A stretch of DNA of 64,000 nucleotides from Candidatus Thorarchaeota archaeon SMTZ1-45 (GTDB lineage Archaea; Asgardarchaeota; Thorarchaeia; Thorarchaeales; Thorarchaeaceae), in assembly GCA_001563335.1 (NCBI GenBank), contig LRSL01000013.1:39583-103582 (forward strand), given 5' to 3'. Under the pieces are notes generated by a model. It saw nothing but the letters and a program-made list of their open reading frames with translations, was not told the origin of the DNA and ran no database searches. Positions 30,960 to 36,179 of this stretch are shown in pieces. The translations under genes and the position numbers were made by a program. The first letter of the stretch is position 1, and each line of letters starts with the position of its first letter.

Positions 30960-31020
30960 AACTAAACCACCAGGGACTTGCTTTTCTCGTTCGTTTTAAC
31001 TTCCGTTTAAGTGTCTTGGT

Positions 31021-31332
31021 TCATCCCCAAAGTTCCCTATACCATTCCTCAGCATCGTCACCTAGCTCAAGTCGAATGGATCCACTAACAACGCTCATGT
31101 CATCGCCCTCTTTAATCTCGAAATTCAAACCCGCAATTCTGATTGCCTTTTTCTCAAGATGAACATTACCGATATTTCGAGCGTGCATCGTTGCTATTCT
31201 CTTTCCCCCATCCATGACAAGTAGCTGATCATAATACATGACACTGCATTTGAACTTAAACTTGGTATCCTTAAGTGAGCCTATATGAATCTCAAGATTG
31301 CTGAATTCTGCTTTCACATTTTCTGCATTCAT
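31021..31332 (-). CDS. Hypothetical protein (possible PH-like fold)
   Basis: Beta-rich chain ending in the helix DAEEWYREL. Likely start MNAENV. Confidence 0.65.
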   Translation of the reverse strand: MNAENVKAEFSNLEIHIGSLKDTKFKFKCSVMYYDQLLVMDGGKRIATMHARNIGNVHLEKKAIRIAGLNFEIKEGDDMSVVSGSIRLELGDDAEEWYRELWG

Positions 31333-31425
31333 CGGTCGCACAACCCGAATGTGCTGCATGCTATCTTATGAACTTCATTATCAGGATAATTCTCTCCGGA
31401 AGATAGATAGTCATTTTCGACCATA

Positions 31426-32253
31426 ATGAAACTGAGAGAGATGAAAAAAGGACTATATATCGGCACAAGCGGATGGTCTTATGAAAAGGACTGGAAAGGA
31501 ACTTTCTACACTACAGGGGGTTCAATGCTGAAGTATTACCTCACATATTTTCAAACCGCAGAGATTAACTCGACTTTCTATGCACTCCCTAAACCCACTT
31601 TCATCAAGCATCTCTCGACTTTAGATAAGAGTGTATTTTTCACAGCTAAACTACCCAAAAAGGTCACTCATGATAATCGTTTGAATCTCACAGGAGAAGG
31701 AGGTGAAACACTAACGGAATTCTTTAGGTTATTAGCACCTATCCAAGACAGAATTCCTGTTCTCTTGATACAACTGCCTCCTTGGGAAATTTCAACGATG
31801 GGTGATTTAGAGAGCTTCTTATCGTCATTGGATTCATCGTATAGATATGCCATTGAATTTAGAGATGAATCTTGGCTAGTTAGTAAAGTTTGGAAGATAC
31901 TAGAACAATATGAAATTGCTAATGTAATAGTTGATGAACCCAAACTTCCGATTGACCTTCGAATTACAACTGATTTCTCCTACATTCGCTGGCATGGTCA
32001 TGGTGCAAACCCATGGTTCAATTACAGGTTTTCAATTGATGAATTAGAGAACTGGGTCCCTCGACTGGAAAAAGTCACTGAGAGTGTTGAAACAACCTTA
32101 GGTTACTTTAACAACCACTTCGCAGGTAATGCACCACTAAATGCACTTCAAATGTTATCATTGCTGAAAACAATAACACCAAAACAACAAGCAAAACTTG
32201 ACCGAATGCTGAAATCTACCACAACCAAGCAAACAACTTTGGAAGATTTCTAA
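31426..32253 (+). CDS. DUF72 family protein
   Basis: IGTSGWSY, EINSTFY, QLPP, EFR, YIRWHG and YFNNH motifs. Confidence 0.93.
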   Translation: MKLREMKKGLYIGTSGWSYEKDWKGTFYTTGGSMLKYYLTYFQTAEINSTFYALPKPTFIKHLSTLDKSVFFTAKLPKKVTHDNRLNLTGEGGETLTEFFRLLAPIQDRIPVLLIQLPPWEISTMGDLESFLSSLDSSYRYAIEFRDESWLVSKVWKILEQYEIANVIVDEPKLPIDLRITTDFSYIRWHGHGANPWFNYRFSIDELENWVPRLEKVTESVETTLGYFNNHFAGNAPLNALQMLSLLKTITPKQQAKLDRMLKSTTTKQTTLEDF

Positions 32254-32471
32254 TTCTTTACCACCTCGAAAGCCACTCTGACCGAAATGCCCAAGGTTAT
32301 AAGGACACTCTATGATGTTTCATTGCGTAAAGTGAGAAAGGAAGAGTCAGGTTAACAAATAACTATACTAAAACCAGAACGTTTTCCCTGGTATTTGATG
32401 TATCTGCTTTTTCAGCAATCACAGACTTAGTCTGTATGATATACTACACTCACAAAAGCAGGATAAAAACA

Positions 32472-32615
32472 ATGGAAAAAATGAAGATTGATTCTAAAAC
32501 GAGCTACACTAGAAACAGAGTGATTAGTGGGCATGGACCTCATCGAATATTGGACATGAAACGACAAGAAATGTTGGATCGATTAGTTGAGAAAGAATCC
32601 TTGGAGGAGCGGTGA
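32472..32615 (+). CDS. Small hypothetical protein (47 aa)
   Basis: Manual translation MEKMKIDSKTSYTRNRVISGHG...ESLEER; ends 4 bp before the next small ORF. Confidence 0.3.
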   Translation: MEKMKIDSKTSYTRNRVISGHGPHRILDMKRQEMLDRLVEKESLEER

Positions 32616-32619
32616 AAGA

Positions 32620-32748
32620 ATGAGTACGAGAAATTATGACCACTGTACATGCGGTCACAAACGTGAGAAACATGAAGACTTCAAGGATGGATGTTCTAAG
32701 TGTAGCTGTAAAGTCTTTCACAGAGGTATGATTCATAATTCAATGTAA
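32620..32748 (+). CDS. Small Cys/His zinc-finger-like protein (42 aa)
   Basis: MSTRNYDHCTCGHKREKHEDFKDGCSKCSCKVFHRGMIHNSM, preceded by GGAGG/GGTGA. Confidence 0.6.
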   Translation: MSTRNYDHCTCGHKREKHEDFKDGCSKCSCKVFHRGMIHNSM

Positions 32749-32803
32749 ATTGATATCAATGTCCATCTGGAAAGCCTAATACACGCAAGAATGTTTCTTA
32801 GCG

Positions 32804-33043
32804 TTAACTCAAAGGCCTGTTCGAGCCATCCTTTACTTTATGTCTACCTTCAAGCCAACGCAACACAAGACCGCCTACAGTGTATAGGAATACAATCTGA
32901 AACACCAACATAAAAACACGTTTTCCGTCAATCGTCAAAGTTTCATAGTAAGACGGTCCAAATATGAGAAATATCAGTATTAATGGAATAACCAATACAA
33001 TTGCAGCTATCCACTTTCTTCTGCCTTCATCCATCTCATTCAC
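32804..33043 (-). CDS. Small two-TM membrane protein
   Basis: Two hydrophobic segments; lies between repeat copies 2 and 3. Confidence 0.65.
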   Translation of the reverse strand: MNEMDEGRRKWIAAIVLVIPLILIFLIFGPSYYETLTIDGKRVFMLVFQIVFLYTVGGLVLRWLEGRHKVKDGSNRPLS

Positions 33044-33229
33044 CTTCCTTCATGCCCTTTCATCTTTCTACTCTCTCACAGAACAGAATGAATCAGCCTA
33101 TGTCACTTTTTGGACTTTGCCTTCCAGCGTACACGAATATGCGAGTCTTTGCCATCTCGAAAGCCTAATAGGCGGACCTCTGCTACCACGTATATACTTA
33201 AGCGTACATCTAAGAAAAATCAAATCGCT

Positions 33230-33706
33230 CTATCCGGACATTGCATCTCGCCAAGTTGCATCTTTTCCATAATCAAACGAAGCCATCTTAGTTGGGCTCA
33301 CAACGACTTTCATCCACTTTGAAACTTTCAAAACTCGTTTCGCTGCGGGTTCAGCTTGTTCCTTGGAATAATACTTCTCGAACAGTGATATACCCCACTT
33401 GAGATCTGCTTCGCCAACAATCTTGGCTTCTCCATAGACAATAACACCTTTGGTTGGGTCGTCTGGAGTACCAAGTTCATCGACCAAAACGGTCACAGTC
33501 GGGTTACGTACAATGTTCCTTGCCTTACGGCTTGCTTCAGGTGTAGCGACGAATATTCTGCCATCTTCATATAAGAACCAAACAGGGGCAACATGGATGG
33601 TCCTGTTCTTGTTCATACTACAGAACCTGGCAATCTTGGCCTTACTCAAGAATGAGTCTATCTCAATGTCTGTAAGTGGAGGAGGTTGAGTATACATTTG
33701 AATCAC
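33230..33706 (-). CDS. Pyridoxamine 5'-phosphate oxidase-like (FMN/F420 split barrel) protein
   Basis: IHVAPVWF..SRKARNIVRNPTVTVLVD..GVIVYGEA. Confidence 0.88.
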   Translation of the reverse strand: MIQMYTQPPPLTDIEIDSFLSKAKIARFCSMNKNRTIHVAPVWFLYEDGRIFVATPEASRKARNIVRNPTVTVLVDELGTPDDPTKGVIVYGEAKIVGEADLKWGISLFEKYYSKEQAEPAAKRVLKVSKWMKVVVSPTKMASFDYGKDATWRDAMSG

Positions 33707-34105
33707 TCTACAATTTTGACTAATGCAGAAGTAGGTATAACTAGCTAATTAGTCAATCGAAGATTGAATATGATTGCACTTAGAATCATTGTTTCAATCT
33801 GATTTGTGTAGTCATGATTACCGTGATTACAAAATGAGAGATCTTTTATCTCCTAGAGGATATTATCTTTCAATCTTTGCGAGAAATATCGAATATTTGA
33901 TGCAATGCTATCTTGAAAGCCTAATACGCAGACCTCTGCCACCACGCGTATACTTAAGCGCACATCTAAATAAAATCTTCACGTGTTGATTCCCTTCTTT
34001 TATAGAACTAATGTGAATCATAGACAATGAAACCGCTTATACAGCGATTCGCTGCTTGATAAAACGTATAACTGCAAATGACTCATTTATTGCTGGGAGA
34101 ACGAT

Positions 34106-34516
34106 ATGGTTTCGCGGGGTAGATTGAACTTTCTCATCTTAGTATGTTCCATTCTGATTCTTCTAACCGCTTATCACATAGGATTGGTTGCCATCCCTCT
34201 AGGTATGGATACCGAAGTATCTCTCGTAGTTGCCATTGGCGCTCTGGCTGTCATCACTCTCTTAGGAGCGTTTGGAAGGAAACGTGGAATGGATGAAATT
34301 GCTACGTACAAACCTGGAACAATCATTTCCAGCATTTTCATAGGTGCTATTGCAATTATGGTGATAATTATGCTCTTACTTGCTGGTATTCACCCACCAG
34401 GTATGGATCCTGAAGTACCATTCCTATTTGTAATCCCCCCTCTAGCACTTGTCATTGTACTAGCAGTATTGATAGAGGAAGTAACCTTAGGATTGAAACT
34501 CGACCAATCGAAATAA
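34106..34516 (+). CDS. Four-TM membrane protein with internal duplication
   Basis: Hydrophobic, with the repeated loop PLGMDTEV/PPGMDPEV. Confidence 0.7.
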   Translation: MVSRGRLNFLILVCSILILLTAYHIGLVAIPLGMDTEVSLVVAIGALAVITLLGAFGRKRGMDEIATYKPGTIISSIFIGAIAIMVIIMLLLAGIHPPGMDPEVPFLFVIPPLALVIVLAVLIEEVTLGLKLDQSK

Positions 34517-34593
34517 GATGGACCGTAACCTTTGCCGCCTCGAAAGCCTAATAAGTGGACCTGAGGCTCGAAGCCGAGTCAGGTGAATGACCG

Positions 34594-35043
34594 ATGAGCT
34601 TTGATATTATCGCTGAGCCAACAGTAAAATCACCACGAGATGCTCGTTCCAAGAGAGGTCGTGGTTTTAGTATTGAAGAAACCGTTCAAGCCGGCCTAAC
34701 TATAACCGAAACTCGGCGAATGGGATTAATTGTTGATAAGCGAAGGAAAACCGTCCATCCTGAGAATGTTGAAGCCCTCAAACAGTATATGAAGGATCTC
34801 GAAGAGTTAGTTGCCGCTTTAGCTGCAGAAGCTGAACCTATCAAAGATAAAGTTGAAGCAGCAGTTGATGATCTTGCCTCACTTAAGGCTGTAAAGAAGT
34901 CTGAGGTTCCGTTGCTTGCAAAAGCTGATATCAAGACATTCGAAGATCTTGCATATTGTGATATAACAAAGGTTGCTAAGAAAACTGGAATCGAAGAAGA
35001 CCGAATCACAGAGATGGTAAAAGCAGCTCTCAAAAAGGTCTAG
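34594..35043 (+). CDS. rpl13e: Ribosomal protein eL13 with C-terminal HhH-like extension
   Basis: RGRGFSIEE..AGL..GLIVDKRRKT..NVEAL. Confidence 0.9.
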   Translation: MSFDIIAEPTVKSPRDARSKRGRGFSIEETVQAGLTITETRRMGLIVDKRRKTVHPENVEALKQYMKDLEELVAALAAEAEPIKDKVEAAVDDLASLKAVKKSEVPLLAKADIKTFEDLAYCDITKVAKKTGIEEDRITEMVKAALKKV

Positions 35044-35078
35044 AAAATCGCTTGACTAAGTCTTAGGGGAAGAGCGAG

Positions 35079-36179
35079 TTGGACTATACTCGTCTCATAT
35101 CAATATTGCAGAATCCTCCAAAGGTGAATTACCCAGTAGTACTCCCTGATTTTTTTGTAGATCACTTTGTACTTTTCAAGACGCTAGATAGTTTCCTAGA
35201 TGGTTTGAAACGACTTGCTCAGCAAGGTGGAGGCAACTTGCTTAAGAATGAGCAGTTCATTCGAAAAGGCGGAAATGCAGTAAATACAGCATCTGCCTTA
35301 CTTTCTCTGGGCTTGAATCCAAAATTAATTGTCACAACCGATTATTATGGGGCATCTCTTCTGAAAGCGTTAGTTAGTCCTAATTTAGATTTGAGTCATG
35401 TTCACACTGATGGTCGGCTTTCCTCAACAGTATCGATTGAAACAGAATACTCAGGAAGAAAGGTCAACCTGATGGTCAGTGATAGTGGTTCGGCATCAGA
35501 ATTTGAATTCTCTGACCTTTCTCGACATGATATCGATGCCATCAAAGGTAGTGGAATTGTTGCTCTGGTTAATCTAAATCATAATAGAAAAGCTGCGGAG
35601 CTTGCTCATGACCTCTTTCAGATGATAAAAAAGTCATCAAAAGCTATGACATTCATGGACATGGGTGACCCCTCAGGAAACCCCAAAATAGTTACTAAAC
35701 TTGTTGAAAATGTAATTAAAACAGGTTTGGTAGACATCATCGGACTGAATGAGAATGAAGTTGGTTGGATTGCTCAGGTTCTAACAAGTAATCGCGAGCG
35801 TTGGAAAAACATATCGGAAAAGCCTGAACTTTGGCTTGAAGGAGCTCAATTGATTGCCAACGATACAGGAGTCCGGATAGATCTTCATACGCCACATTAT
35901 TCTTCAACAATCAAAGGAAATGAGATAACTTCAGTTCCAGCATTTGATGTTGAAAGTCATATTGTATGTGGTGCAGGAGATGCGTGGAATGCTGGTGACA
36001 TCTATGGTACACTCCTCGATTTATCCCCGTTTGATCGATTAACTCTAGCTAACGCTGTAGCGTCACTCTATATTTCCTCAGCTTCAGCAACACATCCACA
36101 AATAGCTGATATAGTGGAATTCCTAGAATCCAATCCAATCCTCTCACGAGATGGTACAAAGTTACTTAAAGTTCAGTGA
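35079..36179 (+). CDS. PfkB/ribokinase family kinase
   Basis: GGNAVNTA, NENE and CGAGDAWNAG motifs. Confidence 0.88.
   Translation: MDYTRLISILQNPPKVNYPVVLPDFFVDHFVLFKTLDSFLDGLKRLAQQGGGNLLKNEQFIRKGGNAVNTASALLSLGLNPKLIVTTDYYGASLLKALVSPNLDLSHVHTDGRLSSTVSIETEYSGRKVNLMVSDSGSASEFEFSDLSRHDIDAIKGSGIVALVNLNHNRKAAELAHDLFQMIKKSSKAMTFMDMGDPSGNPKIVTKLVENVIKTGLVDIIGLNENEVGWIAQVLTSNRERWKNISEKPELWLEGAQLIANDTGVRIDLHTPHYSSTIKGNEITSVPAFDVESHIVCGAGDAWNAGDIYGTLLDLSPFDRLTLANAVASLYISSASATHPQIADIVEFLESNPILSRDGTKLLKVQ

Follow-up and report, generated by a model that had tools for sequence, protein, structure and literature searches.

The interval between a DUF72 gene and rpl13e in a Thorarchaeota genome is built of small gene units separated by five co-oriented copies of a short sequence from the presumed rpl13e promoter region. 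The array probably formed by tandem accretion at this site of units that descend from a promoter-targeting integrative element and have lost the integrase, with the enzyme acting in trans. The window, that is, the whole stretch of 64,000 nt that was analysed, derives from a genome (G000) of 3.54 Mb that is 87.7% complete. All five repeats reported by the first-pass annotation are present at the places it gave (Table 1), the first as a partial core, with spacings of 502, 389, 756, and 627 nt; copies 3 and 4 share 82% identity across 88 nt. Its labels for the DUF72, PNPOx-like, and rpl13e proteins are borne out by Pfam matches. The Zn-finger, two-TM, and four-TM proteins, labeled from the look of their sequences, have no Pfam match at cut-off.

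Table 1. Features of the DUF72–rpl13e interval (positions in the window)
Feature	Position	Strand	Remarks
DUF72 gene, conserved left flank	31426..32253	+	PF01904, E 4.5e-51; synteny kept in relatives
Copy 1, left half of core, stops after GAAAGCC	32259..32274	+	attL-like remnant; right box absent
Unit 1	32275..32760	+	small ORF and Cys/His-rich microprotein
Unit 1 small ORF	start 32436 or 32472, end 32615	+	
Unit 1 Cys/His-rich microprotein, 42 aa	32620-32748	+	
Copy 2 core	32761..32784	+	
Copy 2 right (LE) box, degenerate	32792..32817	+	matrix score 17.0; near-identical in G077
Unit 2 cargo, two-helix membrane protein, 77-79 aa	32804..33043	-	
Copy 3 left (RE) box, integrase-leader type	33118..33143	+	score 12.3, from a matrix trained on right boxes only
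Copy 3 core	33150..33173	+	
Copy 3 right (LE) box	33181..33206	+	conserved tail reaching ~33221
Unit 3 cargo, PNPOx-like protein, 158 aa	33230..33706	-	PF01243 (PNPOx_N), E 1.4e-14
Copy 4 core	33906..33929	+	
Copy 4 right (LE) box	33937..33962	+	score 24.4
Unit 4 cargo, four-helix membrane protein, 136 aa	34106..34516	+	
Copy 5, terminal core	34533..34556	+	BRE/TATA-like rpl13e promoter region; putative insertion site
rpl13e, conserved right flank	34594..35043	+	PF01294, E 1.7e-10

The 24-nt core corresponds to a single-copy region upstream of rpl13e that is kept across the family, with one copy ~61 nt before the rpl13e start throughout the relatives. Its right part resembles an archaeal BRE and TATA box; from this likeness and its position, the terminal core would be the rpl13e promoter. 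A 20-nt core pattern occurs in 58 of 86 family genomes, compared with 2 of 86 for a reversed control, and rpl13e itself was found in 78 of the 86. Lineages with very short intervals and no array often keep only the right part of the core. Within G000, the 12-mer GAAAGCCTAATA occurs five times, four of them inside the DUF72–rpl13e interval, against a genome-wide expectation of ~0.7 from base composition, and a genome-wide weight-matrix scan places copies 3, 5, 4, and 2 within its top five matches. The core is locus-specific and therefore neither a genome-wide promoter consensus nor a dispersed MITE, the two readings that the first-pass annotation had set against its own. The core pattern has no match in the viral contigs. 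A CRISPR-like or structured RNA repeat finds no support: an Rfam search over 31000-36000 returns a single chance-level match and no known RNA family.

Empty and filled alleles of the site coexist in the family. DUF72 and rpl13e lie on one contiguous stretch in 57 genomes, and these complete intervals were compared. Near-empty intervals of 160 nt or less number 22, with a recognisable core in 12 of them, and the other 35 carry cargo of variable content over 195-6875 nt; two to five cores are present in 15 of the 57. Vacant sites and a variable content and order of cassettes are what had been predicted for related genomes from the window sequence. The predicted cargo ORFs (77) fall into 36 clusters, some of which are spurious frames. 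Pfam matches are found for 8 of 20 cargo representatives (hydrolases, acyl- and acetyltransferases, an oxidoreductase, and a beta-helix protein), and nuclease or transposase families are absent among the 20 scanned. Unit 1 alone adjoins the terminal core in G014, G020, G042, and L055, units 1-2 are present in L054, and units 1-4 in the window; this nesting of alleles suggests that new units enter at the rpl13e side. Four genomes (G072, G073, G083, and G084) have an rpl13e that is matched in two parts inside a single longer open frame of ~223-238 aa, which suggests an internal insertion.

At the DUF72 end, most filled relatives have no core, and duplicated DUF72 3′ ends lie inside the array in G009 (L048, ~225 nt) and G024 (L040, ~75 nt); for these reasons, a second, homology-driven process probably adds DNA there. 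Copy 1 had been read as a crossover point because it diverges after GAAAGCC. The core does end at that motif, but the copy is atypical in having no right box and in lying where most filled relatives lack a core. Its right flank recurs in G002, where it comes after a partial core that is internal. In G059:C250 (L078), G070, G057, and G045, the query finds no DUF72 in the space that separates the upstream gene from the array or rpl13e.

Whole units are shared between genera. The two-TM unit is 90.9% identical to G077 over 363 nt and 91.8% identical to G096 over 222 nt, both of a different genus, against 64-68% for host genes in the same comparison. The whole four-TM unit, with matching ends, is 76% identical to its counterpart in G072, again a different genus, where host genes are at 64-67%. 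Unit 1 shows 80-90% identity in several relatives and 90.5% to L054, whose host genes are at 75-77%. The PNPOx unit has no DNA match of at least 100 nt in any other locus compared. In alignments of the shared units, identity begins and ends at the cores. Flanks that are only 64-68% identical are too divergent for easy homologous exchange.

Internal junctions have a tripartite anatomy in which 26-bp dyad boxes lie 32 nt to the left and 31 nt to the right of the core. The core and both boxes start with TGCC and finish with GC(A/G), and the arm 3′ of internal cores is conserved in four genera. The earlier description of the repeat as a BRE/TATA-like element thus holds for the core, but the repeated element extends to the flanking boxes. 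A box matrix was trained on the 26-nt box 31 nt to the right of internal cores, with scores >3 counted. It detects the right box at 37 of 46 distinct internal sites, a circular count in that these are the training set, and at 1 of 43 terminal sites. Left flanks lay outside the training; across 100 filled ones the matrix peaks at -32 (mean -5.0, compared with -12.6 +/- 1.2 at other offsets), and there is no peak in 10 empty ones. A left box scoring >3 is present in 19 of the 100 (null, 0.9% of 800) and absent in 81, among them the flanks in which units 1, 3, and 4 of the window end. The window accordingly has a right box at copies 2-4 and a left box at copy 3 only, of a type that in L054 and G096 is followed by the remnant of an integrase start codon.

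Sequence variants within the core indicate where strands may be exchanged. Positions 0-1 track the left unit and position 15 onward tracks the right side; named site pairs place the exchange between core positions 2 and 14-15. The overlap region is probably GAAAGCC, which is both the dyad centre and the break point of copy 1. The right arm is shuffled relative to the cargo over its first half. Folding of both strands at 12 junctions gives no significant attC-type single-strand structure (z -1.4 to +1.9). A dif-like 11-6-11 reading of the right box was unconvincing when judged by eye. Elsewhere in G000, a right-box-like sequence (C69:16847, score 27.9) lies beside what appears by eye to be a minus-strand tRNA gene with an intron, at its 5′ end.

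A candidate enzyme adjoins the same site in relatives. The absence of a recombinase from the window, remarked on in the first-pass annotation, extends to the whole of G000 at its 87.7% completeness, in which PF00589 has no match and tblastn with nine members of the integrase family finds no tyrosine recombinase; the proposal of an enzyme acting in trans is supported by the tyrosine recombinase found next to the site in relatives. Among the 86 family genomes, 29 have a PF00589 match and 19 a close integrase homologue (E<=0.001). An intact integrase gene is found at the rpl13e site in two genomes, G101 and G097, where the ORF starts ~56 nt to the left of the terminal core and, in G101, points away from it. 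Both assemblies are broken at the integrase; the remainder of the G101 gene lies on the DUF72 contig, which overlaps the rpl13e contig by 130 codons, and G097 is arranged likewise. Between DUF72 and the integrase of G101 or G097, no core or right box marks a left end of the integrase-bearing element. Integrase 5′ stubs occur at a similar distance from the core in G002, G018, G011, G043, and G077. Starts or stubs thus occur in 7 of 120 distinct flanks (2 intact starts and 5 stubs), and start-codon remnants in 11 of 113, including the two-TM unit of L054 and G096.

The integrase family comprises 17 matches, 10 of them at >=40% identity over >=40% of the query, and its members are ~291 aa long. 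Residues R124, K150, H215, R218, W241, and Y251 are invariant in 10 of 10, and the R-K-H-x-x-R-H/W-Y set together with a lambda-Int fold places the family in the tyrosine recombinase superfamily. The nearest structures are those of XerA, at ~20% identity. Scores lie under every NCBIfam cut-off, at 88-93 bits for NF040815 (XerA; cut-off 220) and 36-50 bits for TIGR02249 (IntI; cut-off 265). In a comparison with IntI4, 13 profile positions span 54 IntI4 residues, of which the integrase lacks ~40. Alignment against viral contigs gives six loci at 27-28% identity, and a scan of a genome collection gives six loci, consisting of five Thorarchaeota contigs that appear to be among those already counted and one distant partial match. 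Two further finds concern the gene: a short Holliday-resolvase-like ORF beside the integrase in G101 and, in G097:C17 (L226), a second near-identical integrase that heads a 21-kb contig with a CAP12/Pycsar TIR-domain gene (PF10137).

The site before rpl13e has a counterpart. A different promoter-like core precedes an acyl-CoA dehydrogenase gene and is flanked in relatives by the same arms and by integrase stubs; the integrase distance is fixed at two different cores. This core was found in 22 of 86 genomes, with four copies at G000:C113:5908-8730 (L241, L258). Its right box is present at 5 of the 44 sites listed, terminal ones included, and at none in G000, and most internal copies in the array carry a leader of variable length. 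One 99-aa cargo unit with related arms lies between rpl13e cores in G002 and, in G014, between those of the acyl-CoA dehydrogenase gene. A frameshifted family integrase lies beside a third core-like promoter sequence at G073:C1:828107-828500 (L230); G000 has a single copy of that sequence (C37:43365), with no array seen. Further arrays of G000, at tRNA ends and elsewhere, have no boxes. At C113:11599-20358 and C116:1448-4343, a GAGAGAGG/CCTCTCTC hairpin element is repeated between blocks of 0.6-2.4 kb, and at C15:51553-59397, C34:10514-11537, C86:74728-76495, and C43:1644-3981, copies of tRNA 3′ ends and other short repeats form arrays.

In the most likely mechanism, the ~291-aa Thorarchaeota recombinases would integrate small circles at the rpl13e promoter region. 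The donor circle would carry a left box, a core, and a right box, that is, three dyad boxes at a 31-32-bp period, in which the outer boxes may serve as accessory sites, and the host site would be the bare core. Each event would leave the old left arm, a core, and the new right box at one junction and rebuild the new left arm, a core, and the host TATA and leader at the other. Since the host TATA and leader stay put, rpl13e would keep its promoter after each event. Integrase-carrying elements would lose their interior and give rise to one- or two-gene units that retain their ends, and these reduced units could be moved, between genera as well, by an enzyme in trans or a passing element. At least some units are evidently deletion derivatives of an integrase-carrying element; among those in the window, such a derivation is visible only through the left box of unit 2. 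No complete autonomous element with both ends was found at the site. The contigs of four sequencing runs contain no circle or excision joint, and contigs, which drop rare forms, could easily miss these. A joint of 33174 to 33946 was considered as an excision of unit 3 and rejected on account of extra letters between the two and a match to a relative's junction. The scheme leaves the scarcity of DUF72-side cores and the duplicated DUF72 ends unexplained, and the 99-aa unit between two different cores and the box-less arrays of G000 count against it, as do the lack of a PF00589 match in G000, the limited spread of the integrase (any PF00589 match in only 29 of 86 genomes, an intact gene at the site in only two), the missing left end, and the 81 of 100 filled left flanks that have no scoring left box.

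A broader version is tentative and somewhat doubtful. It envisages promoter-docking gene capture, in which one small recombinase family would target the BRE of housekeeping promoters (rpl13e, acyl-CoA dehydrogenase, and perhaps a third), three-box sites would set direction, and a shared pool of one-gene cassettes would be moved in trans among genera and promoters. Such a system would be equivalent to the integron but independent of it and acting on double strands, and the host promoter would survive unharmed.

Arrays of this kind could in principle grow without a recombinase. Donor DNA would be anchored at one end by homology to rpl13e or DUF72, and the second end would be joined illegitimately or through a short stretch of homology, so that extra copies of gene edges stay behind. 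The integrase would be a single ancient passenger, and later units would have inherited its ends. The DUF72 3′ ends duplicated in G009 and G024 fit this account, as do the variable leaders and sparse right boxes of the acyl-CoA dehydrogenase array, the many G000 arrays that lack boxes, and the shuffling of the right arm's first half against the cargo. It is nevertheless unlikely as the explanation of the array, given that boxes on both sides of the core are fixed in position and dyad in form, that the integrase keeps a constant distance at two different cores, and that whole units have crossed between genera despite the low flank identity. A process of this kind probably operates alongside integration, at the DUF72 end. 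Rather improbable is a duplication of ~20 bp of target, by a staggered cut or by a homing-type cut and templated repair, in which the units would own only their two arms and the core would be copied from whichever promoter was hit. Host-clade variants are often common to internal and terminal cores, as this would predict, and the 99-aa unit lies with related arms between different cores; however, its copies in G002 and G014 share 78-97% identity in the interior but 52-73% at the ends, which fits a cargo swap between related elements. The sole enzyme at a fixed place is, moreover, a tyrosine recombinase, and tyrosine recombinases are conservative. The cargo representatives offer no nuclease or transposase family in its stead, with the Holliday-resolvase-like ORF of G101 being short.

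The look of the array, together with the enrichment of integrons in Asgard MAGs reported in the available part of PMC9668308, might instead suggest a true integron or CALIN with attC cassettes and IntI in trans. This is very improbable here in view of the insignificant single-strand fold at 12 of 12 junctions, an enzyme that scores far under the IntI cut-off and lacks ~40 IntI4 residues, and cargo of mixed orientation. Chance, a generic promoter consensus, or an assembly artefact, to which the BRE/TATA-like character of the core might point, can practically be dismissed: the core is locus-specific in G000, its pattern recurs in the family far above the reversed control (58 of 86 genomes compared with 2), and contigs of other sequencing runs cross the junctions. 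Public runs provide contigs that span copies 1, 3, 4, and 5; among the pieces listed, copy 2 is spanned only by a run that may be the source.

Trans-acting integration at the promoter would give a concrete and testable account of how accessory genes move in Asgard archaea, a group in which gene gain is a frequent topic. Stacks that lack an integrase are numerous in Thorarchaeota genomes, and for the present one a candidate enzyme can be put forward together with a defined site of recombination. The 291-aa recombinase, with its ~25-bp host site and three-box donor site, could serve as a new integration tool. Cassette arrays also exist that attC-based screens cannot detect.

A search of the literature, mostly of open-access main text, found no description of such a system, and the available parts of PMC13247210 and PMC8813620 do not describe it. 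Several known systems share some of its features. In Xer/dif, a single chromosomal XerA acts on one 11-6-11 dif site, whereas the present family has a patchy, element-linked distribution and multiple sites. The enzyme resembles the XerA, pNOB8, and SNJ2 tyrosine recombinases in fold and size, with XerA the nearest, but identity is ~20%, the XerA profile score is 88-93 compared with 220 bits, and the gene is not split by the att site. Extra recombinase-like boxes beside a core, used by an enzyme without an arm-binding domain, are known from the direct repeats of IntI1 attI1 and from the TnpI IRS; the candidate boxes described here differ in flanking the core on both sides, three helical turns away.

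Accretion of ICEs, IMEs, and CIMEs, as outlined in the accessible part of PMC5704250, proceeds by integration, loss of the integrase with retention of att sites, and further integration on the host-gene side, giving tandem stacks. The Thorarchaeota arrays are alike in that direct, att-like core repeats bound the units, the site is empty in relatives, and units appear to derive by deletion from an integrase-bearing element. They differ in their size (0.4-1.5 kb, mostly one or two genes), their archaeal host, and their three-box sites; the target is a promoter upstream of a gene instead of a gene 3′ end, and no conjugation genes were seen. Archaeal integrative elements are known to undergo tandem integration and integrase loss, with some intergenic targets and, for pTN3-like elements, the 5′ half of the target (PMC8371274, in part). 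A promoter-centred target, a three-box site, and an Asgard case are not mentioned in that part of the account.

Integrons and CALINs likewise have small unrelated genes between repeated sites, shuffled among genomes, often with the enzyme absent, and the present array is one of exchangeable units in the same sense. By the integron features given in the available part of PMC9668308, it differs in having no attC hairpin and an enzyme that lacks the added domain specific to IntI; the integrase is also located within a unit, on the array side, orientation is mixed, and the core is host promoter DNA. The first-pass term integron-like therefore stands for the outcome and falls for the attC fold and the enzyme: the system works like an integron, yet has neither of the two defining integron features. 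It fits the pattern of tandem accretion at one att site; its target centred on a promoter, the very small size of its units, and its three-box sites are features that the available part of PMC8371274 does not describe.
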